From the NCBI GenBank assembly GCA_016931325.1, contig JAFGFC010000071.1, positions 11,379 through 75,378 on the forward strand: 64,000 bases of DNA, given 5' to 3'. Both the position numbers and the translations under genes were made by a program. Source of the DNA: Spirochaetota bacterium. Lineage in GTDB: Bacteria > Spirochaetota > JAHITG01 > JAFGFC01. Below the pieces are notes generated by a model. The model saw only the letters and a program-made list of their open reading frames with translations, made no database searches and was not told the origin of the DNA. Shown in pieces: positions 1 through 16,354 of this stretch (positions within the stretch are counted from its first letter, which is position 1; every line of letters begins with the position of its first letter).

Positions 1-414
1 AGCGATATCTCTCCTGGCGTGTCCGAAACTCATGCAGAGTTTTTCTTGATTCTGGATCAGTTCAAGGAGCCACTCTTCTGTGATCCTGATATCCCTGGCG
101 CCAAATCCGACAATAAAAGGCCTGATGGATTTTACTTTGCTGTCCACTTTAATTTGTAAAGCAGGCTTTGCTTTTTTAAAAAAGGGATAGCTGTAATCTT
201 TCAGTCCGAGGTATTGATTGATCTGCCGGGCCAATCCTGAACAGGTCCACAGGTCCGGACGGTTGGTATCGTTAAATTCAATTTTATAGATCCCATCTTC
301 CAATCCTTTTAATTCAGCCTTGGCGCATTCCAGTATTTTCTCCAGTCTGGATCCTGACAATTTTGTCAAGATCTGTTTATCAAAATCTTTTTTTATAATT
401 TCTATCTTGGGCAT
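1..414 (-). CDS. pheT: Phenylalanyl-tRNA synthetase beta subunit, archaeal type, N-terminal part (runs off the window edge)
   Basis: The minus-strand ATG at 414 lies 2 nt after the pheS stop and opens a frame to the window edge (MPKIEIIKKDFDKQILTKLSGSRLEKILECAKAELKGL...). This is the pheS-pheT gene order and N-terminus typical of archaeal-type PheRS beta. It is absent from the ORF track because it lacks an in-window stop. Confidence 0.55.
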   Translation of the reverse strand, partial: MPKIEIIKKDFDKQILTKLSGSRLEKILECAKAELKGLEDGIYKIEFNDTNRPDLWTCSGLARQINQYLGLKDYSYPFFKKAKPALQIKVDSKVKSIRPFIVGFGARDIRITEEWLLELIQNQEKLCMSFGHARRDIA

Positions 415-416
415 CT

Positions 417-1985
417 TTACATCACCATTCTTGACTGCCTCACAAAATCCAGATCCCGTGAGAACAGTTCTCTGATATCATTGATCCCCATGGCCATCAT
501 GGCCATCCTGTCAACACCCAACCCCCAGGCCAGGACAGGGACCCTGACACCCAGAGGAATCGTCAATTCCGGTCTGAAAATACCTGCCCCTCCCAGCTCG
601 TACCAGCCCAGTTTGGGATGCTTGATGTGCAGTTCAACCGAGGGTTCAGTAAAGGGGAAATAAGCCGGGGAAAATTTTATATCGTCCGCTCTGGCAATTT
701 CTCTGGCAAATAAAGTTAACAGCCCCAGGAGGGTCTTGAAATTAACTTCTCTACTCAACACGATCCCTTCCACCTGGAAAAAGTCAGCCAGATGAGTAGC
801 ATCCACCCTGTCGTATCGGAAACATCTGGCAATGGCAAAATATTTCCCCGGGATCTGTGGATGGGATGCCAGCATGCGGGCCGACAGAACAGTACCCTGA
901 CTGCGCAGTAAAAGCTGTTTGGCCTTGGTCCTGTCAAATTTATACCCCCATCCTTTTGAGCCGGTCTTTGCTCCATTCTCATGAGCCTGAGCCACACTGG
1001 TAAAATAAGGTTCTTCGATTTTTTTGGCCAGTCTGGGATCTTTGAGAAAATAGTTATCATGAATATCCCTGGCCGGATGAGTCTGGGGCATAAAAAGAGC
1101 ATCCATATTCCAGAATTCTGTTTCCACCAGACCTCCCCGCATTTCAGAAAAACCAAGGGCAATGAATTTATTCTTTAAAAAATGTAAAAACTCCCTGTAG
1201 GGATTCTTGCGGCCAATGATAATATGAGGAGCCGGCAGGTCAAGATTGTACCGTCTGAATTTCTTGTTCTGCCATTTCTTCTCCTTTAACATTTCAGGAC
1301 TTAGCTGCGATATCTCATCACCTGTCATTTTCTCTTTGTTAAGGATCTCTTTTATCTGTTTGCCTTTTTCTGTCATGATGTATGATACAATATCGGTCTC
1401 GTGTATTTTGAAACATTTCTTATAAAGAGAATAATCTTTCGCTTTTTCCAGACAGTTCTTCTGTTCAAGGGACAATTTTGATTCATCAAAAATTTCCGTA
1501 CTGTCTTCCGGCAAATGTTTCAGGGTTTCATAAAAATCATTATGATAAGAAATATCTTTTTTTTCATCCAGATAATAAGATCCCTCTTCCTCTAACAGCA
1601 GCCCGTCTTTTTTCATACTCCCGATGGTAGATCCTATATCTTCATTTTTATACTGCATTCCAAGTTCCTGCATCAGTTCAGCCGCTGTCGCTGATCTTCC
1701 GCCTTTTAACCGATCCATAATGTTTATGGCGGGGACAGGTTTTTCTTTGAATTCTTGGCCCTTTTCAGTTCTCCCAAATCGCTTGCAGGTTTTACGCCCG
1801 CTCTCTTTAATCAAACCTTTGGATAATAGCCAGTCCAGTCCTCTTCTGATCTGGCCCTCATTCAGGCCTGTTCTCAAAAGGAATTGAATATCAAAATTCT
1901 GATCGTCTGTTATCGCATTCAGTATCTTGATCTCAATAGGGTGCAGGGTATTTATGATATTACTTACCGACATGCATGACCTCAA
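417..1985 (-). CDS. pheS: Phenylalanyl-tRNA synthetase alpha subunit, archaeal/eukaryal type with N-terminal winged-helix extension
   Basis: The 522-aa length fits the archaeal type. The C-terminal class II catalytic core contains FRPELTIPLGVRVPVLAWGLGVDRMAMMAMG and the FPFTEPS motif. Confidence 0.85.
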   Translation of the reverse strand: MRSCMSVSNIINTLHPIEIKILNAITDDQNFDIQFLLRTGLNEGQIRRGLDWLLSKGLIKESGRKTCKRFGRTEKGQEFKEKPVPAINIMDRLKGGRSATAAELMQELGMQYKNEDIGSTIGSMKKDGLLLEEEGSYYLDEKKDISYHNDFYETLKHLPEDSTEIFDESKLSLEQKNCLEKAKDYSLYKKCFKIHETDIVSYIMTEKGKQIKEILNKEKMTGDEISQLSPEMLKEKKWQNKKFRRYNLDLPAPHIIIGRKNPYREFLHFLKNKFIALGFSEMRGGLVETEFWNMDALFMPQTHPARDIHDNYFLKDPRLAKKIEEPYFTSVAQAHENGAKTGSKGWGYKFDRTKAKQLLLRSQGTVLSARMLASHPQIPGKYFAIARCFRYDRVDATHLADFFQVEGIVLSREVNFKTLLGLLTLFAREIARADDIKFSPAYFPFTEPSVELHIKHPKLGWYELGGAGIFRPELTIPLGVRVPVLAWGLGVDRMAMMAMGINDIRELFSRDLDFVRQSRMVM

Positions 1986-2180: not shown

Positions 2181-5100
2181 CTATTTATGTTTCCGGCGGC
2201 TTCTGGTCTTTCGCTTAATGCGTGTCGGTCTCCTGATCCCCCTCTTCCCGAACACAAAAACACAGTTACGGCCTGATTCCTTGGCCTTGTATAGACTCTC
2301 ATCCGCTCGCTCGACAAACTCCAATCTGTTCTCCCCTTCCCCTAATTGCGCCACACCAATACTCAATGTCACATTTAACTCTTCAACCCTTTTCCCCACC
2401 CGGTAGCTCATCTTCAACCCTTCGGCCTCTTTACATAACTTGCCTGCCAGGTTTTCCGCTCCCTCCAGGTCTGTTTCCGGCATAATTACCACAAATTCAT
2501 CCCCTCCATACCGGGCCGCTATATCGCTTTTCCTTACATTCTCCTGGATCAGATCCGTCACCTCGATCAATACCAGATCTCCTGCCTGATGCCCGTAATC
2601 ATCATTGAACCTTTTAAAATGATCAATGTCGATGATCATGAGGCTCAATGCCTTGCCATACCTTAAGGCCTCATCAACGCTTTTTATCAGATAATTGTCA
2701 AAGAAAATCCGGTTGTAAAGTCCAGTCAGCCCGTCCGTGATCGCCCGCTGGTAAAGCCTTGCGTTCTCTATCGAGACTCCGGCCTGACCTGAGATAAGAT
2801 CAAGAACCATCAAATCCTCCTGGCTGAATAGCCCGGTCACCAGACGATTATCCAGATAGATCACACCCAGCATATTTCCACGCGCCATGATCGGCGCACA
2901 GAGAACGCTTTTTAGCCCGTACTTGACCACTGACGACTGCCCTTTCAGTACCGTGTCTGTACCCGCATCTTCCACAATAACCGGCTTTGTCTCTTTTTCC
3001 ACCTTCTCTATTATGCTCTGGCTGGAGATAAATGCTTCTCCCTTCAGCTGCCCCTTCTCCACATTCCTGACCACCCTGATTTCAAGCTCTTTCTTCTTCC
3101 CCCTCTCATCAGGATATAACAACAGTATGCCCCGCTCCGCTCCCACCAGTTCCATGGTCTTGTCCATGATCTTTTCCAACAGCTCGTCCAGGTTGAGTAT
3201 GGATGACAGATATCGGCTCGTGCCCAATACCGTGGTCATCCTCCGCTCCACCTTGAGCCGGTCCTGCGGGCTGACCTCCTCGGTTGCCTCTTTCTCTTCT
3301 TTGAGTCCCAGGGCCTGAGAGCATTCTTTGATATATTTTTTAGCTCCTATGGTTTTGAAAACAGTTAATGCTGTTTCCCGGTTTTTCATGGCTTCTTCTT
3401 TTTTCCCCATTATATCTAAAAAATTGCTGTATTCGTAATAACTTTTAGCCATTTCATATTGACGATATGTATTTTTTAAATGTTTTATACTTTTTTTAAA
3501 ACAATTTTCCGCTTTTGTCTTCTTCTTAATTAAAGCGTAGTATTTACCACATACTCTCCATGTAACACCGTAATGGGCTGGCCAGGCTTTTGTATGCTTG
3601 TGAGATTCTTTACAAATTTTTTTTATCTGTTTCATGTCTCTTTTTAACAAGATCTTATTTTTTGTCCTGGTATCTTCATTATAATATCTCATGATATAGG
3701 AATCAGCCAAATAAGGATACAGGTATACAATATAATCTTTAATAAAATTATTATTAAGATACAGCTCTTTAGCTCTTTCCAATAATTTTATTGCTTCCTG
3801 ATATTTACCCTCTTCATATTTTAAATATCCGTGTACAACGCTGGAAGAACAATATATAAACCAAACTTTGTTTTTTTTACTGACACTCAAAGCCTCTCTT
3901 CCTACTTTGTTCGCTATATCAAAATTTCCCATTTCTATATTAGCTAAAGATATATTGGCCAGTGCTGAACTTTCACCATATACATCTTTTAATCTTCTAC
4001 TGATTTCCAGGTATTGGGTTAAATAATTAACCCCTTTGGCATAATCAGACATTAATCTGTATAAAAGACCAAAACCCTGTATTATCATCCCTAATTCCCA
4101 CATATCCCCCATTCTTTCAAATTTTTCCTGTGCCAGAGTGAAAACCTCAATAGCTTTTGGATATTCTGCCTTCCAGCTATAGCCATATCCCATAAACTGG
4201 AGTGATTGAGCTAATCCCCATTCATCATTCAGTTCTTTCCTTAAAGCTATAGCTTTTTTATGATATTTTATGGATAATTTAAAAATAGGTATAGCCATTA
4301 ATAACGCAGCATATCCTCCAAAAGATATGCCTAATTCCTTTGATTTTCCTATCCTCGATTCTGATATATTTAACATCCTTAATACATTGCAGATAAATTT
4401 ACTAATATCACTTAAAATATACATCCAATTTAACGGGATATTGATCCAGACTATTTCTTTATCTTCTTCTTTGATATTTTTAATTCCCTTGCGTACAAAA
4501 ATAAATGGGAAAAGATTATGCAAAAGATGTGTAATAATTTCTTTTGTCAAAGAAATTATGATTTCTATTTTCTTTCGCGGAATTTTTTCTCCAATTAATA
4601 ATAATCCATTCGCTAAATTGTCCTCACATTTTTCCCAGTCCCCTTTTTTAAAATAAGCCGTTCCTATTTTCCGGTAAATACGGGCTTTTTCAACAGGTTT
4701 TTTCTTTAAATGCAAAAGTTCCCGACATAGATCTATCGCTTCATCATTCCTGCCAATCGTTAGATATACCGCTGATAAACCCTCTTTGGCTTGAATCCAC
4801 TCTTCTTTACCTTTCTTCCCTTTCTTTTCTAACAAGTCTATCCCTATCTGATAATATCTGATCGCATCTTCATTGGCATAGTTTACTTTCGCCTTTTCAG
4901 CTGCCGGGATGACATATTCCAAAGACTTTCGTTTATCTCCTCCTTCTGTATAATGATGTGCCAGCTCAAAGACCACACTCTCAATGTTTTTCTTATTTAA
5001 TTCTTCGATTGCTTTTGCTATTTTTAAATGAAGAGCCTGTCTTCTCTTCTTGCCGATCTTCTGATAAAAAGCATCCCGGATCTTGTCATGCACAAAGATC

Positions 5101-7103
5101 TTCTTCCCCCGTTCCAGACTTTCCTGGATCAGCTGCATGGATATGGCGTCATCCACTATCCTGACAACATCCTCCTTTGGCATCTCTACCAGAGGATACA
5201 GCAGATCGATCTCAAATTCCCTGCCGATAACAGATGACAGATAAAGTATTTCACTCTGCTTCTGGGTGAGATCCTCGATCCGTTTTAAAATAATATCGAT
5301 CATATTGGCTGATACCGGAATCCTGGCTATCCGTTTCCAGTCCGCATCCCAGTACCCTTCCTTCCATATCAGGCCTTTCTCTTCTACCAGTTCTCTCAAA
5401 ATACTTATGGCAAAAAAGGGATTTCCCCTACTTTTTCTCATCACATACCGGGTCAACTCATGGGCTTTGCTCTCCCGTTCACCCAAAAGTGAAGCCACCA
5501 TCCTGTTCATCCTGTCATAAGTAAATGATTTGATAATAATCTCTTCTAAAGCATAACCTCCTGTTTCAGCCTCATTTTTTACCCTGGTTAAACTGTGCTT
5601 TTCATCCACCTCATTATCACGAAAAGCTCCTATGATCAACAGGTTTGAATTTTTTACCTTCCCGGCGATCTCCTCAAGGAGCCTCAAGGTCCCTTCATCC
5701 GCCCATTGCAGATCATCGATATAGATCAGGCAGGCTGTAGTTTCCCCAACCAGATGACAGAAAAAATTGGATGCCACCATTAAAAATCTCTGGTTCTCAC
5801 GTTCCGGATCAAGTTTGACCAGCTGAGGTACTTCGCCCAATACTTCAGACATGTTCCCATTAAGCCGTATCACGATCTCTCCCAGATCCCCCAGAATATT
5901 TTTTATCCTCTTTATCTCTGTTTCTTTTTCTTTCTTCCCTAACCTTTCAAGATGTTTAATATACCCGTTAATCGTGTCCCGGAAAGGCTGATAGGGTGTC
6001 TTGTTCTCCTGGTCCAGACAACGGCCGCCAATGAAAAGCCCGTTCTCTTCATAACAGTAACTCCTCATCTCCTCCAAAAGACGGCTCTTGCCCACTCCCG
6101 GTTCTCCTCCTATCAAACAGACACTCCCCTGACCATCCCTGGCTTTATTAAAAAGCTTTTGCATCCTGGATACTTCTGCTTCCCTGCCCACAAGCCTGGT
6201 CTGATAACTGATCTTTACCTTCTGGTCCTTCTCCCCTATGATAAAACCCCTTTCCCCTTTCTGGAATCTTTGTACATCATATAAAAGCCCCTTGGCGCTC
6301 TGATACCGAAGCTCCGGTTCCTTGAACAACAGTTTCATCACCATCTCTTCCAGTTCACTCGATATCCCGGTCCGCACCTTGCCCGGCTTGGTCGGCATTA
6401 CAGCCACCTGCTGATGAAGCATCTTGCTGGTCTCTTTGGCCCTGAAAGGCAGTTCCCCGGTCAGCAATTGATAAAAGATAATACCCAGTGAATACAGATC
6501 ACTCCGTTCATCTATTCTTTTATTCACGATCCCCGTGGCTTCAGGCGACATGTATCCGAAGGTCCCGACCACTTCTTCCTCCCCTTTCAAATGACCCAGT
6601 TCCATGATAAAGGCCACGCCAAAATCTAAAAGTTTTGTCACATTTCCTTTGCCCTTTTTCACCAGCATAATATTGCCCGGTTTCAGGTCCCTGTGAAGTA
6701 TCCCCCGGCCATGTACATAATCCAGTGCCTCTGTCAGTTGTTTGATAATATCGATCGTTTCTTTTGTTCCAAAACTTTTCTGCTGCTCCAATTTCTCGGA
6801 CAGGCTCTGTCCGGGAATAGATTCCATGACAATGTAAGGAATATTTTTATATTCTCCGCTGGAATAGATCTTTACGATATTGGTATGGCTTAACTGGCTG
6901 ACCGCTTCGATCTCTCTTTTGAACCGGATCACATCTTCAATATAGGATGAGGTCACTCCCTGTTTGAGGAATTTTATGGCCACATCATGCTTTTTTTTTC
7001 TGTCCCTGGCCCGAAAAACAACACTCATTCCCCCTTCGCCGATCTGTTCAAGTATCTGGTATCTCGTATCAATTGTTGCGTTCTTTTTAAATTTCAGTTC
7101 CAT
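2181..7103 (-). CDS. Multidomain signalling protein: N-terminal Ser/Thr protein kinase, AAA/STAND-like NTPase, multiple TPR repeats, GAF domain, C-terminal GGDEF diguanylate cyclase, then a Lys/Arg-rich tail
   Basis: Kinase motifs GEGGMSVVFRA...AIK and HRDLKPGNIML...DFG. Walker A GGEPGVGKSRLLEE. A long TPR-like helical region. GAF-like ELLEKIMDKTMELVGAERGILLL. GGDEF motif RYGGDEFVVIM with an RKSD (RxxD) I-site 5 residues upstream. The tail reads RRPTRIKRKTRSRRKHK. Confidence 0.8.
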   Translation of the reverse strand: MELKFKKNATIDTRYQILEQIGEGGMSVVFRARDRKKKHDVAIKFLKQGVTSSYIEDVIRFKREIEAVSQLSHTNIVKIYSSGEYKNIPYIVMESIPGQSLSEKLEQQKSFGTKETIDIIKQLTEALDYVHGRGILHRDLKPGNIMLVKKGKGNVTKLLDFGVAFIMELGHLKGEEEVVGTFGYMSPEATGIVNKRIDERSDLYSLGIIFYQLLTGELPFRAKETSKMLHQQVAVMPTKPGKVRTGISSELEEMVMKLLFKEPELRYQSAKGLLYDVQRFQKGERGFIIGEKDQKVKISYQTRLVGREAEVSRMQKLFNKARDGQGSVCLIGGEPGVGKSRLLEEMRSYCYEENGLFIGGRCLDQENKTPYQPFRDTINGYIKHLERLGKKEKETEIKRIKNILGDLGEIVIRLNGNMSEVLGEVPQLVKLDPERENQRFLMVASNFFCHLVGETTACLIYIDDLQWADEGTLRLLEEIAGKVKNSNLLIIGAFRDNEVDEKHSLTRVKNEAETGGYALEEIIIKSFTYDRMNRMVASLLGERESKAHELTRYVMRKSRGNPFFAISILRELVEEKGLIWKEGYWDADWKRIARIPVSANMIDIILKRIEDLTQKQSEILYLSSVIGREFEIDLLYPLVEMPKEDVVRIVDDAISMQLIQESLERGKKIFVHDKIRDAFYQKIGKKRRQALHLKIAKAIEELNKKNIESVVFELAHHYTEGGDKRKSLEYVIPAAEKAKVNYANEDAIRYYQIGIDLLEKKGKKGKEEWIQAKEGLSAVYLTIGRNDEAIDLCRELLHLKKKPVEKARIYRKIGTAYFKKGDWEKCEDNLANGLLLIGEKIPRKKIEIIISLTKEIITHLLHNLFPFIFVRKGIKNIKEEDKEIVWINIPLNWMYILSDISKFICNVLRMLNISESRIGKSKELGISFGGYAALLMAIPIFKLSIKYHKKAIALRKELNDEWGLAQSLQFMGYGYSWKAEYPKAIEVFTLAQEKFERMGDMWELGMIIQGFGLLYRLMSDYAKGVNYLTQYLEISRRLKDVYGESSALANISLANIEMGNFDIANKVGREALSVSKKNKVWFIYCSSSVVHGYLKYEEGKYQEAIKLLERAKELYLNNNFIKDYIVYLYPYLADSYIMRYYNEDTRTKNKILLKRDMKQIKKICKESHKHTKAWPAHYGVTWRVCGKYYALIKKKTKAENCFKKSIKHLKNTYRQYEMAKSYYEYSNFLDIMGKKEEAMKNRETALTVFKTIGAKKYIKECSQALGLKEEKEATEEVSPQDRLKVERRMTTVLGTSRYLSSILNLDELLEKIMDKTMELVGAERGILLLYPDERGKKKELEIRVVRNVEKGQLKGEAFISSQSIIEKVEKETKPVIVEDAGTDTVLKGQSSVVKYGLKSVLCAPIMARGNMLGVIYLDNRLVTGLFSQEDLMVLDLISGQAGVSIENARLYQRAITDGLTGLYNRIFFDNYLIKSVDEALRYGKALSLMIIDIDHFKRFNDDYGHQAGDLVLIEVTDLIQENVRKSDIAARYGGDEFVVIMPETDLEGAENLAGKLCKEAEGLKMSYRVGKRVEELNVTLSIGVAQLGEGENRLEFVERADESLYKAKESGRNCVFVFGKRGIRRPTRIKRKTRSRRKHK

Positions 7104-8835: not shown

Positions 8836-9843
8836 ATGGAAACAAAACGATGCAGCCTGTTTTTTCTTTACTTCCTGTGTTTACCGTGGATACTTTTTTC
8901 AGATACAAATTCTTCATCAACCAATATAAAAGAAAAATACACTAAAGAGACCATCCAATTCTGGGATAGAACTCTGCGTTTCGGCACCACACAGCAGAAA
9001 AAGGCTGTCCTTGAAACCATCAGAGATCAAAAGATCGAAGCCGCCCTGGATATAGTAAAGGACCATCTGGAAACAGAAAGGAACCTCACTGTGAAAAAGA
9101 TCATGATCGAGGCTCTGGTAACTTTAAAAGACAGATCATCCATCCCTTATCTGATCACGCTCTTAAAAGATAATTCCTTAACGAGGGATATCCATATTTT
9201 TGCCATGAATGCTCTGGGCCTTTTAAAATCTGAAAAATCCGGTGATGTTATTCTTAAATTTTTAGATTCGCCTGATATCCAACTGAAAGAGACCGCGTTG
9301 AGGGCTCTGGGTGGGATTCAATACAAACCGGCTACACCTGTTGTTATTAAAAAGCTAAAAGAAGAAGAGAATGAAAGGGTGAGAACAGAAATGATATTGA
9401 CCCTGGTCAATATCGAATCAGAAAAATCTCAGGACACCCTCATTTCCATTCTGACGAATGAGAACGAAAAATCACTTAACCGTCAATTTGCTGCTACCGG
9501 ATTAAGTCGCATAAAAAATGAAAGATCCTTTGCTATTTTATCACAATATATCGAGCGTACTGACACAGCGATAAAGGCCAGAATAACAGAGGCGTTAGGG
9601 ACCCTGGGGAATAAAAAAGCCGCCATGATCTTACAGGAATGCTTGAAAGATGATGATGATGTTATCCGGTATTATGCAGCTCTATCACTAGGAAAATTAA
9701 AGATAAAGGATGCCCTGGAGATATTAAAGTATAAAAAGGATTATGATCCTGAACTCAAGGTCAGAAAGGCATCTGAAAAAGCCATAAAACAAATTTCAGG
9801 GGAGTCAGATGAACATAAAGGACTCGGAAATACAAAAAACTAA
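8836..9843 (+). CDS. Secreted HEAT/PBS-lyase-type repeat protein
   Basis: N-terminal hydrophobic signal sequence. Repeated ~30-aa units of the form ...ALGxLGxxxAxxxLxxxLxDxDxxVRxxA... (e.g. DVIRYYAALSLGKLKIKDALEIL). Confidence 0.6.
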   Translation: METKRCSLFFLYFLCLPWILFSDTNSSSTNIKEKYTKETIQFWDRTLRFGTTQQKKAVLETIRDQKIEAALDIVKDHLETERNLTVKKIMIEALVTLKDRSSIPYLITLLKDNSLTRDIHIFAMNALGLLKSEKSGDVILKFLDSPDIQLKETALRALGGIQYKPATPVVIKKLKEEENERVRTEMILTLVNIESEKSQDTLISILTNENEKSLNRQFAATGLSRIKNERSFAILSQYIERTDTAIKARITEALGTLGNKKAAMILQECLKDDDDVIRYYAALSLGKLKIKDALEILKYKKDYDPELKVRKASEKAIKQISGESDEHKGLGNTKN

Positions 9844-10786
9844 AAAGATCCTGAAAGATTTTCATTCCACACTTGAAGAAGTTTCTTATTATTGCTCAAA
9901 GACCAACAAGATCTACAAAGCCTTTGGACTGTCCGTGATCAATTCCACGGCCATGGACAGGATCAAAGGGATGTGCGATGAGATACAGGGCAGGCTGAAG
10001 AAGGATTTCATCTTAAAAATCAAGATCGATAAAAATTACTATCATGATCTGAGAAATTTTATATTTACGGATATATCATTATTTATTAAACAATTTAATA
10101 ATTTTTTTAATAATATACTGATCCGTTTTAAAAAAAATTATTTTAGTAAAGAAGAATGGAAGACCGGTAATCCTCTCACACTTCTGGGCGCTACTTTTAC
10201 TTTTTTAAATATGCAATTTAAAAGTCTAAGCAATATTGTTAATCGTTTCTTTAATGTGGGTCTGAAGGAACATTACGAGCTCGAGGTCATTGATGATACA
10301 GATAAAATATGGGATACTAAAGATATGAAATTTGCCGAGTTCCCGAGCGATATCAATAAAATAAAAGTCTACGCCAGGAATATTATGGATACCTGTAGTT
10401 CAGACGAAATAAAAGAGAATGTGATACTGCAACTTCAGATCAGCGAATTTATCAAAAATGCCATCCGTCATGGCAATAAACTTGATCCTAATAAAAAGGT
10501 CAAAGTATGGCATAATATTAACAATGATTTTGTCAAATTGATCGTGCAGGATGAAGGTGAAGGATTTAAACAATTAGAAGAATGGAACGAATTTAATAAA
10601 CTGCGAAATAAATTTATACAGGAACAGGATTTAACAAATGTTCTCCTCTTTGCCGCCTATAAAACAACCGATAGCCAGGACAATGATGGCGGTAATTTTT
10701 TATTTTCAGCTTTGGAATATTGGGATAGCGGAGTTATTTTTAATCAAAAAAGAAACAAGATCGTCGTCATAAAATATTTCTATTGA
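9809..10786 (+). CDS. GHKL-type ATPase, RsbW/SpoIIAB-like anti-sigma-factor kinase family, with a ~130-aa N-terminal extension; paralog of 11109..11714
   Basis: N-box ISEFIKNAIRHGN; G1 box QDEGEGF; DGGNFLFSALEYWDSGVIFNQKRNKIVVIKYF. About 190 aa align with the convergent gene at 11109..11714. Confidence 0.5.
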   Translation: MNIKDSEIQKTKKILKDFHSTLEEVSYYCSKTNKIYKAFGLSVINSTAMDRIKGMCDEIQGRLKKDFILKIKIDKNYYHDLRNFIFTDISLFIKQFNNFFNNILIRFKKNYFSKEEWKTGNPLTLLGATFTFLNMQFKSLSNIVNRFFNVGLKEHYELEVIDDTDKIWDTKDMKFAEFPSDINKIKVYARNIMDTCSSDEIKENVILQLQISEFIKNAIRHGNKLDPNKKVKVWHNINNDFVKLIVQDEGEGFKQLEEWNEFNKLRNKFIQEQDLTNVLLFAAYKTTDSQDNDGGNFLFSALEYWDSGVIFNQKRNKIVVIKYFY

Positions 10787-10790
10787 ACGA

Positions 10791-11108
10791 TCAGACTTTT
10801 TTATAAAATTTAAAATATTGTCCGATCTTTGTAGCGGTAAACACTTCCAGAACATCTGAAGAAATAGACAGGATACCCAGTTCCCCGCCTTTTCCCTTTA
10901 AATCTTTCATGACATCCATCAGACATCCCAGACCGGAACTGTCAATATAATCGATCTTTTGAAAATCCACAATTATTTTTTTAAACCCCTGTTCGATACC
11001 GTTCTTTAATAATTTTTTTAATTCACCCACATTATTGATATCAATAGAAGTATTTTCTTCCTCGATCCTGACAATAAAAAGATGATCATTAATTTCTGCT
11101 TTAAACAT
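10791..11108 (-). CDS. STAS-domain anti-sigma-factor antagonist (SpoIIAA/RsbV-like)
   Basis: 105 aa. The DYIDSSGLGCL motif carries the conserved phosphorylatable Ser context of STAS antagonists. Confidence 0.7.
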   Translation of the reverse strand: MFKAEINDHLFIVRIEEENTSIDINNVGELKKLLKNGIEQGFKKIIVDFQKIDYIDSSGLGCLMDVMKDLKGKGGELGILSISSDVLEVFTATKIGQYFKFYKKV

Positions 11109-11714
11109 TTAATACTCCCCTTTTAATTCTTTATCAGTATAATATCTCAAGGCCACCACTTTGTTCTTTTTCTTATTATATATCATACCGCTATTCCAGA
11201 ATTCAATGGCAGCAAAAAGGGCATTACCGCCATCCAGCTCGCTGCTTTCCGAGGTTCTATAGGAAATAAATTTTAGCATTTCATCAAAATTATTTTCTAA
11301 AAAATATTTCGTCCTTTTTTCATTAAACTCATTCCACTGTTCCAGGGTTGTAAATCCTTCCCCTTGATCCTCAACAATGATGCGGGCGAACCTTTCCTTC
11401 GGTTTAAATTCCCACCAGGCCCTCACAACCTTACTTTCATCTTTCCTGTTCCCGTGTATAACAGCGTTCTTTATTAACTCTGATATCTGTTGTTCCAATA
11501 GATTCCCCATTTTAAATTCATTGGGAGCCTCAAAGGCAATAATCGTTGCATAGTTTCTGATCTGTCTATATCGACTGGGAAATTCCCGAAATCTCATTCC
11601 TTCCGTAGTAAAATAAGGGCTATATTCATTCACTTCTAATCTTCTGATCTTGGCCATAATGAATCCTGCAAAATACTCGTTAGACAGTTTAATCAATTCC
11701 CACTGGAATGTCAA
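11109..11714 (-). CDS. RsbW/SpoIIAB-like GHKL serine-protein kinase (anti-sigma regulatory factor)
   Basis: ISELIKNAVIHGN, EDQGEGF, DGGNALFAAIEFWNSGMIYNKKKNKVVALRYY. Sits immediately upstream of, and is co-directional with, the STAS gene. Confidence 0.6.
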   Translation of the reverse strand: MTFQWELIKLSNEYFAGFIMAKIRRLEVNEYSPYFTTEGMRFREFPSRYRQIRNYATIIAFEAPNEFKMGNLLEQQISELIKNAVIHGNRKDESKVVRAWWEFKPKERFARIIVEDQGEGFTTLEQWNEFNEKRTKYFLENNFDEMLKFISYRTSESSELDGGNALFAAIEFWNSGMIYNKKKNKVVALRYYTDKELKGEY

Positions 11715-11782
11715 GGATTTTATATTTGCTTTTTTAATTTCAAAGAGTATAATAGATAAAATTTTCTATATGGAGGTAACTA

Positions 11783-12084
11783 TGCCTGTTATGGACATAA
11801 GCCTTTTCCCTATCGGCACAAAATCAACATCCCTCAGTCCTTTTATTGCAGAATCGATCCGGTTTTTAAATAAAACGAAAAATGTGAAATACTCCTTGAC
11901 TCCCATGGGGACGATCATTGAAAGTTCTTCAGTAGACAAACTTTTAAAAATAGCCGGTGAAATGCACAAGAACATGCTGAAAAAAACAAACCGTGTCCTT
12001 ACCCATATCAAAATTGATGATAGAAAGGACAAGAAAATCACCATGGAATCAAAAATCAGATCAGTGGCAGAAAAGATCAAATAA
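11783..12084 (+). CDS. MTH1187/YkoF-family (DUF77) small protein; start trimmed to the ATG after GGAGG
   Basis: MPVMDISLFPIGTKSTSLSPFIAESIRFLNK...YSLTPMGTIIE has the family pattern. A GGAGGT RBS lies 6 nt upstream of the ATG at 11783. Confidence 0.55.
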
Positions 12085-12150: not shown

Positions 12151-12981
12151 ATGAAACATATAAAAATAGTCACAGGGATTTTTTTATTTTTTTCTTATTC
12201 TTTATTCCTGCCAGCTCAATCTGTTGATGAGGATTATCCCTATATACCAACAGAAGAAACGAATAAACCCTTTATCATTCAAACCAATAAATCGATTTCC
12301 AAAGAAGAAAAATCCACTCTCAAAGTGAATGTCGGTTTTTTTTATCTGTTTTCCTCTGGCGGATTCAATCAACCTTATTCGGCTGACGTTCAGGGAGAAG
12401 AGATATACTATCGTATGCCGGTTAACAGTTTTAATGACTCACTTTATATCAGTATCGGCTTTGACTGGGATTTTTTAAAACAGTACAGGTCCAGACTGGG
12501 ATGGTCTTTGGAGTTGAACTTTGGCGGAAGTGGTGATTCTGAAGGGTCAGCTGACAAGATAGAATCTTCTACTGATCTGGGACTGGCCAAAGGAGGCGAA
12601 TTATATGCTAATTTTGCCGCTCACAGGATCACAGCCTATCTTAATATTTTCTCTTATCCTTATAAATTAAGCCTGCTCCATTTTTATACAGGATTAGGAG
12701 CCGGCCTGGGAATCGGGTGGTTCACCTATAATGAACTTGTGGAACAGGAGATCTCTGAATACGAACAGAATTTCAGGGCTACCTTTGTCAAACTGATACC
12801 CGGTTTCAAGATCTTTGCCGGATTTATCCTTGATTACAGCCTGTTTGATCTGTTTGAACCTTTCTTCCTGGAAATGGCCTATAAAATATCTCCCACCCCG
12901 AAGATGAAGCATGAGGATTTTGGGACGAGGATAGAATTTCAGACATCGGGATTTATGCTGGGTCTTGGCTTCCGTTATTAA
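12151..12981 (+). CDS. Hypothetical outer-membrane beta-barrel-like protein
   Basis: Signal peptide. Alternating amphipathic segments. C-terminal GFMLGLGFRY ends in an aromatic residue, as is typical of OMPs. Confidence 0.35.
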   Translation: MKHIKIVTGIFLFFSYSLFLPAQSVDEDYPYIPTEETNKPFIIQTNKSISKEEKSTLKVNVGFFYLFSSGGFNQPYSADVQGEEIYYRMPVNSFNDSLYISIGFDWDFLKQYRSRLGWSLELNFGGSGDSEGSADKIESSTDLGLAKGGELYANFAAHRITAYLNIFSYPYKLSLLHFYTGLGAGLGIGWFTYNELVEQEISEYEQNFRATFVKLIPGFKIFAGFILDYSLFDLFEPFFLEMAYKISPTPKMKHEDFGTRIEFQTSGFMLGLGFRY

Positions 12982-13500: not shown

Positions 13501-14223
13501 TTGAATAAAATGGCAAATAAAAAAGAATATATCATTATCATCCCTATCTATAATGAGGAACAGCATATCCTTACTGTCTGCCAGAAGATGAAAAAGATCA
13601 TCGATAAAAAAGTTATGGATATTCTGGTCATTAATGACGGTTCAACAGATAAAACACTTACCATCTTGAAAGGCATAAAAAATATCAATATATTATCTCA
13701 TAAGGTCAATCTGGGGTATGGGCAGTCTCTGATTAATGGTTTTCATTACGCTATAAAACGGAATTATAGATATATTATTACCATGGATTGTGACTGGCAG
13801 CATGACCCGGATCAGATCATGCATTTTGCTCAAGCGATCAGAGGTCATTGGGACATCATATCAGGAAGCCGTTATTTAACATTGTCTCCGGCTAAAAAAA
13901 AAGATGTTCCTCAAGATCGTTTTACAATTAATAAAAAAATAACTCGAAAGATAAATAAAATAACAGGCTTTCATCTTACAGATTCTTTTTGTGGATTCAA
14001 AGCCTACAAGGTCAATATATTGAAAAAGCTGGAACTGACAGAACCCGGCTATGGCATGCCTATCCAGTTATGGCTTGAAGCCGGCAAACACAATCTGAAA
14101 GTGAGAGAGATCCCTGTGGATCTGATCTATCTCGATTATTCCCGTAACTTTCATAATCGATTCACTCATGCCAAAGAACGATATAAATATTATCTTAGGA
14201 TACTCAAAGGAGGTAAGGAATAA
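13501..14223 (+). CDS. Family 2 glycosyltransferase, dolichyl/polyprenyl-phosphate sugar transferase (DPM1)-like
   Basis: IIIPIYNEEQHI...VINDGSTDKT shows the GT-A DxD-type signature. Confidence 0.75.
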   Translation: MNKMANKKEYIIIIPIYNEEQHILTVCQKMKKIIDKKVMDILVINDGSTDKTLTILKGIKNINILSHKVNLGYGQSLINGFHYAIKRNYRYIITMDCDWQHDPDQIMHFAQAIRGHWDIISGSRYLTLSPAKKKDVPQDRFTINKKITRKINKITGFHLTDSFCGFKAYKVNILKKLELTEPGYGMPIQLWLEAGKHNLKVREIPVDLIYLDYSRNFHNRFTHAKERYKYYLRILKGGKE

Positions 14224-14900
14224 TGAATATCATGATAATGGCCCCCCACCCTGATGATGCCGAATTGGCTATTGGCGGGACGATCGTCTCTCTTACTAAA
14301 AATAATAATATTTTTCTACTGGATATGACAAATGGTGAACCCACACCCCATGGCAGTATTGAAACAAGACTCAATGAAGCCAAAAAAGCAGCCAACATCC
14401 TGAATATAAAAAAAAGGATCACCCTTGATCTTCCGAATCGATATCTTCAGGACACGATAGAATACAGACAAGCCATCGCTGAAAAAATAAGAGAGTACAA
14501 ACCTGAAATATTGTTGATCCCTTATAAAATAGACGCTCATCCTGATCATATCGCTTCACATTATCTGGGATTGGCTTCGCGTTTTTATTCAAAATTTACT
14601 AAATCCAAAATGAAAGGAGAACCCTTTTACCCCTCGAAACTTTTTTTTTATTTTCCGAGCCACATGAGGATCAATATACATCCTACGTTTATTTATCCCG
14701 TCACGGAAAAAGAATTCCAGAAGAAGAGGCAGGCTATCAGAGCTTATCGGTCTCAATTCTTTTATGGGAAGAACAAACAGATCCCTGAGTTTATCGATAT
14801 TATCGGAAAATATTGGGGAAAGCTGATCTCATCTGATTACGGAGAGCCTTTTTATACGCCGGAGGTGATCGGCATAAAGGATATGGGTTGTATTGTATAA
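14223..14900 (+). CDS. PIG-L/LmbE-family N-acetylglucosaminyl deacetylase (BshB/MshB-like)
   Basis: MAPHPDDAELAIGGTI (HPDD motif) and HPDHIASH. The start overlaps the upstream stop (TAATG). A strong AGGAGGT RBS is present. Confidence 0.8.
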   Translation: MNIMIMAPHPDDAELAIGGTIVSLTKNNNIFLLDMTNGEPTPHGSIETRLNEAKKAANILNIKKRITLDLPNRYLQDTIEYRQAIAEKIREYKPEILLIPYKIDAHPDHIASHYLGLASRFYSKFTKSKMKGEPFYPSKLFFYFPSHMRINIHPTFIYPVTEKEFQKKRQAIRAYRSQFFYGKNKQIPEFIDIIGKYWGKLISSDYGEPFYTPEVIGIKDMGCIV

Positions 14901-16354
14901 AAATGGAAAGGGAACCGATTAAAAAAACCATTATTCAAAATCATCAGACCCGGAAAGAATTCTTCACACATCAAAAGACATGGGAAAAGATAAGAAAGCA
15001 ATTTTTCAAGGATTTGAAACTCGACCGGTTCGGCGCCGATGTTATAATCATCGCGACAGGTCATCAACCGCTTTTTTATTATCCCGGTATTATCTTTAAA
15101 AATTACTATACGCATAAAATTGCCGGTATGGCAAAAGGCATCCCGGTCAATTTTATCGTGGATACAGATGAAGCCATTGTTCAAATCGTTATACCCGGTA
15201 AAAATGAAAATATATTTTTCAAAAAATTAATGGAGCTGAAAAATCCCGATAAAAAAGCCTATTTTCATTTTAAACCTTCTCAAGAAGAGGTAAAACATTT
15301 TTTTATCCGTATTGAAAAAGAGATAAAAGGCCTTGATGATACCCGGACCAACAAGGCCTTCAGGGATTATTTTAAATCTTTCTTGGAACTTTTTAGTAAC
15401 AATCATGATTTTGTTGAGACAATCTCCTTTTTAAGAAGGCAATGGGAAAAATCCCTTCAATTTCCAGTTCTGGATATCAGAATATCCCGTCTATCCGATT
15501 CTATCGCCTTTGCCCAATTTATCTGGGAACTTGTAAAGGATATTGATCGCTTTACAGAAATATATAATGATGCAGTCCAAAAAGTGAAGAAAAACGAATA
15601 TCAGGCGGTAAAGTATCTGACCCGGGAGAATAATACCTTTGAACTCCCGTTCTGGTATATAGGAAAATCGCGTGAAGAGGTATTTTTAAAAAAGGAAATT
15701 GATCAGCTTTTAATCTTTACCCCCCTGGAAAACCTATTGACTCTATCCATGAAAGAGAACGATAATGTATCAATCCAGAAATTAAAAAGAATAAAACTTG
15801 TCCCTAAAGCTGTCACCCTTACCCTGATCTTACGCCTCTTCTTTGCTGATCTTTTTATTCACGGAACAGGAGGGCAGTTTTATGACAGGGTCACAGATGA
15901 GATCCTGATGAGATTCTATCATCTGAACACCTTGCCCTTTGCGATGGCCACAGGAAACATATATCTGCCTCTTTTTGAGGCCATGATGACACGAGAGAAA
16001 GAATATCGGGAAAAAAAAGATTTTTTAAAAGAATTGAAATATCATCCTGAAAAATATCTGACTGAAGATAAATCCAAAAAATATATATCCGAAAGAAAAG
16101 CATTAGCCAGACTTTTATCCTGTCAAAGCGATCCTGTACAAAGGAAATCAATACATGACAAACTGACCCGGCTTGGGGAACAGGCTACGCAAAGCCTCAA
16201 GGACAGGATCACTGACACAAAAAAGGAGATATCCCGGGCGGAAAATATTATAAAATTCAAAGATGTGTTCGCTGAGAGAAAGTACCCTTATTTCCTTTTT
16301 CCGGGATCATTTCCTTTTATTCAATATCTTGACAGAGGAAAATTGATTGTGTAA
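14888..16354 (+). CDS. BshC-like (DUF2317) putative cysteine-adding enzyme
   Basis: IIIATGHQPLFYYPG...THKIAGMAKGIPVNFIVDTDEA aligns with the B. subtilis BshC segment VVVAGQQAGLLTGPLYTIHK...GVPVIPVFWVAGEDHD as recalled from memory. Confidence 0.4.
   Translation: MYCIKMEREPIKKTIIQNHQTRKEFFTHQKTWEKIRKQFFKDLKLDRFGADVIIIATGHQPLFYYPGIIFKNYYTHKIAGMAKGIPVNFIVDTDEAIVQIVIPGKNENIFFKKLMELKNPDKKAYFHFKPSQEEVKHFFIRIEKEIKGLDDTRTNKAFRDYFKSFLELFSNNHDFVETISFLRRQWEKSLQFPVLDIRISRLSDSIAFAQFIWELVKDIDRFTEIYNDAVQKVKKNEYQAVKYLTRENNTFELPFWYIGKSREEVFLKKEIDQLLIFTPLENLLTLSMKENDNVSIQKLKRIKLVPKAVTLTLILRLFFADLFIHGTGGQFYDRVTDEILMRFYHLNTLPFAMATGNIYLPLFEAMMTREKEYREKKDFLKELKYHPEKYLTEDKSKKYISERKALARLLSCQSDPVQRKSIHDKLTRLGEQATQSLKDRITDTKKEISRAENIIKFKDVFAERKYPYFLFPGSFPFIQYLDRGKLIV

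Follow-up and report, generated by a model that had tools for sequence, protein, structure and literature searches.

Partner-switching modules are among the most widespread signaling devices in bacteria. In the SpoIIAA/SpoIIAB and RsbV/RsbW pairs, a kinase phosphorylates a serine of its STAS antagonist, and the unphosphorylated STAS protein binds the kinase and frees the partner that it holds. Two paralogous small GHKL serine kinases, RsbT and RsbW, take part in the single sigma-B cascade of Bacillus subtilis, and Streptomyces codes for many RsbW-like kinases. Here we describe a module of this type located at positions 8836 to 12084 of a 64-kb stretch of DNA (the window) from a Spirochaetota bacterium (assembly GCA_016931325.1, contig JAFGFC010000071.1, positions 11,379 to 75,378). 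It codes for one STAS protein, a short RsbW-like kinase, a longer paralog of this kinase, and a HEAT-repeat protein that is probably exported. We propose that the locus is a lineage-specific rearrangement of a PP2C-STAS-GHKL core found in spirochetes, in which two GHKL proteins draw on a single STAS pool to form a branched switch, and this is the interpretation toward which we lean slightly.

The locus shares with the Bacillus SpoIIAA/SpoIIAB and RsbV/RsbW systems a single-domain STAS protein with a DSSG motif beside a small GHKL serine kinase with N, G1, and G2 boxes. Most of its spirochete relatives also have a SpoIIE-type PP2C in the operon, comparable to the Bacillus phosphatases SpoIIE and RsbU/RsbP. 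Unlike the SpoIIAB and RsbW loci, however, it has no sigma factor gene in the operon or in the window, its gene order is kinase followed by STAS, and there is no PP2C nearby, while the kinase family to which it belongs has low sequence similarity to SpoIIAB and RsbW, motifs of its own (NLLEQQxSE, WNxFN, and EYWxxG), and a longer ATP lid. The presence of two paralogous GHKL proteins is reminiscent of RsbT and RsbW, but these are both short, each has its own STAS substrates (RsbS/RsbR and RsbV, respectively), and RsbT activates RsbU. Here there is one STAS gene, and one of the paralogs carries a four-helix bundle of 160 amino acids (aa).

The Rsb system of Chlamydia trachomatis (RsbU, RsbW, RsbV1, and RsbV2) also has duplicated components, no dedicated alternative sigma factor in the locus, and a debated target (PMC4552016, PMC8256260). 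The similarity to our locus lies in this duplicated core without a sigma factor of its own, but Chlamydia combines one kinase with two STAS proteins, the reverse of the two kinases and one STAS protein found here, and its RsbU is a membrane receptor phosphatase, whereas no phosphatase was found in the window. In concept, Pseudomonas SiaABCD, Vibrio SypE/SypA, and Bordetella BtrU/V/W are also alike, as all are switches made of kinase, antagonist, and PP2C with a non-sigma output. A likeness to SiaB/SiaC had been put forward in a preliminary description of the stretch, and it holds only at this conceptual level, as SiaABCD groups SiaB and SiaC in one operon with SiaA (a PP2C) and SiaD (a diguanylate cyclase), while neither type of gene adjoins the module here and the antagonist is a classical STAS protein.

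The STAS and RsbW-like superfamilies, duplicated partner-switch components, and non-sigma outputs are thus already known. The spirochete family itself, the long form, the operon that it shares with the HEAT gene, and the combination of two kinases with a single STAS protein appear to be undescribed so far. A full-text search of the library available found no published study of this spirochete PP2C-STAS-kinase family, and spirochetes are not mentioned in a review of STAS proteins (PMC8256260).

Gene content and layout of the module

Five genes were borne out between 8836 and 12084 in the list of open reading frames (ORFs). Four of them had already been reported, and all four are present at the coordinates given, including the overlap between the HEAT gene and the gene of the long form. 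The fifth codes for a thiamine-binding MTH1187-type protein on the plus strand. The features of the module are as follows.

8836-9843, plus strand: HEAT-repeat (PBS-lyase-like) protein of 335 aa (HEAT_2, 126 bits; HEAT_PBS, 66 bits), first gene of the HEAT-long GHKL operon
9809-10786, plus strand: long GHKL protein, whole gene, 325 aa (ORF; the start at 9809 is supported, as full-length homologs have 320 to 330 aa)
9809-10288, plus strand: four-helix-bundle domain of the long GHKL protein, approximately aa 1 to 160 (AlphaFold2 model)
10289-10786, plus strand: SpoIIAB/RsbW-like GHKL (Bergerat-fold) domain of the long paralog (motifs and Foldseek)
10791-11108, minus strand: STAS anti-sigma-antagonist-type protein of 105 aa (Pfam STAS and TIGR00377), second gene of the kinase-STAS operon
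11109-11657, minus strand: short RsbW-like GHKL kinase of 182 aa (NCBI match, AGGA plus ATG; the mechanical ORF extends to 11714)
11686-11714, minus strand: sigma-70-like promoter candidate of the kinase-STAS operon, TTGACA-17-TAAACT (10 of 12 consensus positions)

The HEAT gene and the gene of the long form overlap by 35 nucleotides (nt), and 4 nt separate the stop codon of the long GHKL gene from that of the convergent STAS gene (10784-10793). On the minus strand, the short kinase gene abuts the start codon of the STAS gene with a gap of 0 nt, and translation of the STAS protein is coupled to that of the kinase, a small serine kinase of the RsbW/SpoIIAB type. The length of 201 aa first given for this kinase has to be reduced to 182 aa. 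Its start is the ATG at 11657, preceded by AGGA-N6, and the TTG at 11714 is no start codon but opens the TTGACA -35 box. The best database match is a 182-aa "ATP-binding protein" from a Spirochaetes metagenome-assembled genome (MAG) in NCBI, with 100% identity. The promoter candidate is a match to the consensus only, located about 22 nt upstream of the AGGA-ATG, and the region around the module has no excess of promoter-like sites.

STAS protein and short kinase

The STAS protein is above the curated cutoffs of both models used (PF01740, 67.5 bits with a cutoff of 22.6; TIGR00377, 64.5 bits with a cutoff of 53.45) and conserves the phospho-acceptor serine of the DSSG motif, as the stretch Y-I-D-S-S-G-L-G (D56-S57-S58-G59) is invariant in the STAS alignment. 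Its gene at 10791-11108 is the sole STAS gene in the window when the six-frame translation is searched with a STAS hidden Markov model (HMM), and an HMM of the GHKL family found no third member beside the two paralogs.

The classification of the two GHKL proteins is less direct. Against HATPase_c_2 (PF13581) the short kinase obtained 25.0 bits (E = 2e-5) and the long protein 23.7 bits (E = 5e-5), both below the gathering cutoff of 27.4, and against TIGR01925 (spIIAB) they reached 28 and 31 bits, respectively, for a cutoff of 135. The HMM check proposed initially thus succeeded for the STAS protein, while the kinases remained below threshold. The SpoIIAB and RsbW equivalogs are nevertheless the next best matches of both proteins, and precomputed PF13581 hits are present in many of their close homologs. 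Both are divergent relatives and, judging by their sequences, not members of the curated equivalogs. Because the Pfam scores are below the threshold, the GHKL assignment rests on the motifs, on the homologs that pass, and on a fold match to SpoIIAB. The Bergerat-fold motifs (N-box ExxxNAxxHG, G1 DxGxG, and the G2 glycine motif) are found in both proteins. The two are 42% identical over 166 aa (E = 5e-48), well above what chance would give, which agrees with the description of the pair as an RsbV/RsbW-type STAS and kinase with a second, paralogous GHKL protein. The shared region is shorter than the roughly 190 aa first estimated, measuring about 166 aa, and the N-terminal extension of the long form is longer, with about 150 to 160 aa instead of 130. 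The G1 box DEGEGF, which had been considered common to both, is that of the long form only, as the short kinase has DQGEGF.

The homologs of the short kinase form a family with more than 1000 members, nearly all of about 180 aa and from Spirochaetota, among them Treponema phagedenis and Spirochaeta africana. The N, G1, and G2 boxes are invariant across the 22 members aligned, and the N-box NLLEQQxSExIKNxxxHGN, the G1 box VEDxGxGF, the WNxFN lid, DGGN, and EYWxxG are invariant or nearly so. We fetched 80 genome loci of this family and annotated them with purpose-built HMMs, and the kinase ORF was called in 69. The order PP2C, STAS, and kinase was found in 45 of these 69 loci, as in the T. phagedenis operon (GAF-SpoIIE, STAS, kinase). 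In 9 loci STAS precedes the kinase and the PP2C is elsewhere in the locus, and another 7, several of them on short contigs, have STAS before the kinase but lack a PP2C in the locus. Four (L009 to L012) have the reversed order of kinase and then STAS with no PP2C within 6 kb, and the remaining 4 show other arrangements. As 45 of the 69 loci have the complete operon and 9 more have a PP2C nearby, we can assume that the family represents a three-part partner-switch core. The reversed loci are the closest relatives of the window, and neither they nor the window have the canonical spirochete layout, with GAF/SpoIIE directly upstream of STAS and kinase. What is peculiar to the clade of the window is therefore the missing PP2C in the vicinity and the inverted gene order.

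Sigma factors and the output of the family

The statement that the window has neither a sigma factor nor a PP2C was upheld by searches of its six-frame translation with SpoIIE seeds from the relatives (for PP2C) and three sigma-factor probes (for sigma-70-type genes). The latter probes work, as they picked up two sigma genes in other fetched loci. A Pfam scan of the window proteins not assignable by eye also gave no sigma, PP2C, STAS, or family-GHKL domain. The lack of a sigma factor is real, but it does not distinguish this locus and is the rule for the whole spirochete family, since only 2 of approximately 170 fetched loci carry a sigma-70-type gene within 6 kb, in both cases more than 3 kb from the kinase. 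Neighbors that recur among the family loci sampled are DUF1577-PilZ, glycosyltransferase, TPR, ABC-F, MshEN, and HEAT-adenylate cyclase proteins, none of them sigma related.

These counts bear on the possibility of a canonical anti-sigma system, in which the short (perhaps also the long) GHKL protein would sequester an alternative sigma factor encoded elsewhere, for example sigma-28 or an ECF factor, in the way that SpoIIAB acts on sigma-F and RsbW on sigma-B. SpoIIAB and RsbW are the closest relatives in sequence and structure, and the STAS protein passes the anti-sigma-antagonist model TIGR00377, which points to such an output. The absence of a sigma-70-type gene from the window and its rarity around the family argue in the other direction, as does the fact that several partner switches with STAS and RsbW-like proteins have non-sigma outputs (PMC8256260). 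We regard an anti-sigma role as a tentative possibility, one that would be compatible both with a shared STAS pool and with two separate modules.

The long paralog and its N-terminal domain

Full-length homologs of the long form are few, approximately 20 in a collection of 5.8 billion proteins. E213, N217, H221-G-N, D248xGxG252, and D293-G-G are invariant in 21 to 22 homologs. Given these invariant ATP-binding motifs, the long form probably has ATPase or kinase activity, and by the same token both paralogs are probably active. A structure model was made for the long form (AlphaFold2; predicted local distance difference test [pLDDT] score of 82.6 and predicted template modeling [pTM] score of 0.71) and shows four long helices and, C-terminal to them, an alpha/beta GHKL domain; the short kinase is tied to this fold by its 42% identity with the modeled domain. 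The top Foldseek matches of the model are SpoIIAB structures (1l0o, 1til, and 1tid; probability, 1.0; target TM score, 0.69 to 0.73; E = 9e-5), with RsbW (6m37 and 6m36) next.

In a neighbor-joining tree of the common domain, all the short forms, including those of the window clade, group in one clade, with the long forms outside. Identity between the long forms and any of the short forms is about 44%, compared with 53% between the short forms of the window clade and the other short forms. The tree and these identities indicate that the paralogy is old and did not arise by local duplication.

Modeled in isolation, the N-terminal domain gave a pLDDT of 85 and a pTM of 0.79, with helices at residues 3-28, 43-68, 75-111, and 122-150. 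Searched against 1.84 billion representative proteins, a profile of its 160 residues retrieved 10 cluster representatives, each of about 315 to 326 aa or a fragment and always fused to this GHKL domain, and a profile search of Protein Data Bank (PDB) sequences gave no relative. The novelty claimed for the extension is thus justified at the sequence level, and the four-helix domain appears to be undescribed and private to the long form. Foldseek against the PDB did not provide a specific fold, with only generic four-helix bundles at E values of about 0.08 or higher. The conserved positions are mainly hydrophobic, together with an NPxTL turn and a helix end with LxNxxNxxFxxGF, and there is no conserved His or Cys in the homolog alignments. 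This type of conservation, hydrophobic and without His or Cys, suggests a role in protein-protein interaction or dimerization and not a cofactor site.

The order of a four-helix bundle followed by a GHKL serine kinase domain is also that of the mitochondrial-type kinases PDK and BCKDK. The whole model matched them in Foldseek with an E value of about 1e-3 and a root mean square deviation of 17 to 18 Å, and the bundle alone with a nonsignificant E value of about 1 and a query TM score of 0.44 to 0.46. There is no sequence similarity, and the GHKL domain of the long form is closer to SpoIIAB. The resemblance appears to be one of architecture only.

A helical domain that precedes a GHKL domain could also be expected of a soluble histidine kinase, with the four helices as the DHp domain and YYHDLRN as its H-box. 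The sequence H79-D-L-R-N of the window protein resembles the HisKA H-box, and there were weak Foldseek matches to HK853 and KinB. However, H79 is present in the window protein only, the other 20 homologs having K, R, E, N, or A at this position, and the N-terminal domain lacks any invariant His, so that the alignment rules out the reading of YYHDLRN as an H-box. HisKA gave no Pfam hit, and the GHKL domain is nearest to SpoIIAB and RsbW and not to the catalytic domains of histidine kinases. A histidine kinase is hence hardly credible.

The exported HEAT-repeat protein

The five HEAT orthologs aligned all have a signal-peptide-like N terminus, with one or two basic residues, 13 to 20 hydrophobic residues, and an A-x-A-like site, after which comes a stretch rich in Thr, Asn, and Ser. 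In the window protein, K/R is followed by a hydrophobic segment of 15 residues. The N terminus is therefore a predicted Sec signal peptide, by eye and hydrophobicity only, which is consistent with the secretion proposed at the outset. The hydrophobicity of the long GHKL protein indicates neither a signal peptide nor a membrane segment. As the HEAT protein is predicted to be exported and the long form has neither feature, a direct complex between the mature HEAT protein and a cytoplasmic kinase is unlikely. A possible role of the module in anti-phage defense was discarded, as PADLOC gave nothing for the GHKL and STAS proteins and only generic HEAT hits.

Genomic linkage of the long form

We recovered about 17 distinct loci with the long form, arranged as follows.

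HEAT and long form, convergent with the short kinase-STAS pair: window, L003 (the contig of L010), L006 (the same as L093), L011, L092, L094, and L096
The same four-gene arrangement, with the contig ending before the HEAT position: L097
HEAT and long form, with a REC-SpoIIE gene two genes downstream and then a Ser/Thr kinase: L004
HEAT and long form, with a convergent GAF-GGDEF gene: L005
HEAT and long form, on a contig too short to tell the further context: L095
Long form alone: L007, L008, L098 (L099 is near-identical), L100, and L109
MASE6-GGDEF-EAL and long form: L101
SpoIIE, STAS, and a divergent long form in the kinase slot: L090

The gene most stably associated with the long form is that of the HEAT protein, directly upstream in 10 of the approximately 17 loci (window, L003, L004, L005, L006, L011, L092, L094, L095, and L096), slightly more often than the STAS pair is found (8 or 9 of approximately 17). 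The spacing between HEAT and long form goes from -35 to +3 nt (the database gene call of L005 gives a gap of 11 nt), and since the genes overlap or nearly abut, both can be considered a single operon. In L109 the start of the divergent long form is overlapped by 20 nt by the gene of a 308-aa protein (288-1211, plus strand) without Pfam hits, in the position that the HEAT gene has elsewhere. A HEAT-like identity of this protein was rejected (hhalign probability, 0.1).

In six of the seven convergent loci, the distance between the stop codon of the long-form gene and that of the STAS gene ranges from -4 to +24 nt, and in L003 it is 368 nt. No terminator was found between the convergent genes, and terminator-like sites in the region are at chance level. 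With the stops so close and no terminator between them, the 3' ends of the transcripts of both operons must overlap. The convergent four-gene arrangement is kept down to about 47 to 50% protein identity, with changed flanks on both sides. These are nadC and GCD14 in the window, L003, and probably L092, beta-lactamase-fold and MptE-like proteins in L006, and others in L094, so that there are at least three different flank sets among at least seven four-gene loci. Where the pairs are separated, the two MAGs that could be checked carry both of them on different contigs: JAQTRT01 has the HEAT-long pair (L005) and a kinase-STAS pair (L012), and CAYQNP01 has the long gene (L008) and a kinase-STAS pair (L009). 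The clustering, the spacing of the stops, the changed flanks, and the split MAGs speak for, but do not prove, a functional link of the long form with the short kinase-STAS pair. The association of both halves of the module, implied by the preliminary description, is strengthened by the recurrence of the cluster between different flanks and by L090, where the long form follows PP2C and STAS. It is the short kinase that has a directly adjoining STAS protein with a phosphorylatable serine, and the long form has one only through its convergent neighbor and in L090.

The same data can be read as two independent modules placed back to back, an ordinary kinase-STAS switch with its sigma factor and PP2C elsewhere and a HEAT-long unit acting on a non-STAS target. 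The split between long and short forms predates the diversification of the short family, as seen in the tree and in the identity of about 44%, and the kinase-STAS pair is found alone in L009 and L012, just as HEAT and long form occur without an adjoining STAS protein or short kinase in L004 and L005. The persistence of the convergent cluster with changed flanks is difficult to reconcile with independence, as are the abutting or overlapping stop codons, the divergent long form that fills the kinase slot of a PP2C-STAS-GHKL operon in L090, and the presence of both pairs in both MAGs with separated pairs. On these grounds we consider independent modules unlikely.

Proposed mechanism

Under the interpretation of a shared STAS pool, and by analogy with SpoIIAA/SpoIIAB and RsbV/RsbW, the short kinase would phosphorylate Ser57 or Ser58 of the STAS protein, and the unphosphorylated STAS protein would bind and neutralize the short kinase, releasing whatever this kinase holds. 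A PP2C encoded elsewhere in the genome would reset the STAS protein and is probably of the GAF- or REC-SpoIIE type, as in the relatives. The long form could be a second STAS-directed kinase or a binding partner, as suggested by the clustering and by L090, and its four-helix bundle may provide a separate surface for dimerization or target docking. The targets held or modified by the free kinases, a sigma factor or a non-sigma target, would not be encoded in cis. The cotranscription with the HEAT gene suggests that the output is tied to the cell envelope, which is the weakest step of the proposal.

Several observations weigh against this interpretation. About half of the long-form loci have no adjoining STAS protein or short kinase (L004, L005, L007, L008, L098, L100, L101, and L109), the long form standing alone in all of them except L004, L005, and L101, so the long form may work independently. 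Synteny within one clade can reflect common descent and not function. No PP2C was found within the 64 kb, both GHKL proteins score under the Pfam gathering threshold, and the predicted export of the HEAT protein separates it from a long form that stays in the cytoplasm.

A different view would take the HEAT-long operon as a distinct signaling unit not described before, in which an RsbW-derived, PDK/BCKDK-like kinase competes with the short kinase for the one STAS protein. The switch would then operate by changing kinases and not partners alone, coupled to an envelope or periplasmic function, and could feed cyclic-nucleotide signaling, as genes for GGDEF, EAL, PilZ, MshEN, and cyclase proteins recur nearby. 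We consider this combination improbable.

Spirochetes, including Treponema, have in this family a large and very conserved set of PP2C-STAS-kinase genes with no sigma factor beside them and no known output. The locus is a natural variant of it: the kinase has been duplicated, its long form has a four-helix domain of its own, and the phosphatase has moved away. Should the two kinases indeed draw on a single STAS protein, the locus would be an uncomplicated example of a branched switch, in which one antagonist serves two kinases, and it would also offer a handle on what the spirochete family controls. By itself it brings no new principle.

Neighboring genes

The preliminary description saw no obvious output domain in the window and advised looking for PP2C or GGDEF partners in the wider neighborhood. 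No PP2C was found in the 64 kb, but a GGDEF domain exists in the following protein.

2181-7103, minus strand: Pkinase-AAA_16-TPR-GAF-GGDEF protein of 1640 aa (Pfam), 1.7 kb upstream of the module

It is coded on the opposite strand, with two housekeeping genes (nadC and a GCD14-type methyltransferase) between it and the module, and the syntenic loci L003 and L006 do not have it.

Cyclic-nucleotide-related genes, seen locus by locus, stand beside members of the family in L005 (10981-12342), L101 (4070-5854), L013 (6575-7801), L012 (4987-5799), L006 (10111-11346), and L077 (6691-9765). They code for GAF-GGDEF, MASE6-GGDEF-EAL, DUF1577-PilZ, MshEN, and cNMP-binding proteins and for a cytoplasmic HEAT-adenylate cyclase, the last of which sits directly after a PP2C-STAS-kinase operon. 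Three contigs with typical spirochete PP2C-STAS-kinase genes (L010, L038, and L087) were deposited as "Candidatus Methylomirabilis sp.," "Methanomassiliicoccales archaeon," and "Borreliella garinii" (a sulfidic-cave MAG), respectively, and are probably misbinned or mislabeled MAGs.

The thiamine-binding (MTH1187-type) gene, divergent from the short kinase, starts at 11782 behind a GGAGG and not at 11650, leaving an intergenic spacer of 124 bp. No Rfam RNA element or TPP riboswitch was found between 8000 and 13000, this spacer included. Just downstream of the thiamine-binding gene, 12151-12981 (plus strand) codes for a 276-aa protein with a signal-peptide-like N terminus, no Pfam or NCBIfam hit, and the C-terminal residues Phe-Arg-Tyr, for which an outer-membrane beta-barrel is a guess only. 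Further on, at 13501-16354 (plus strand), a family 2 glycosyltransferase, a PIG-L-type deacetylase, and a 488-aa protein are coded in a row that, by eye, resembles a biosynthesis cluster for a low-molecular-weight thiol of the bacillithiol kind.

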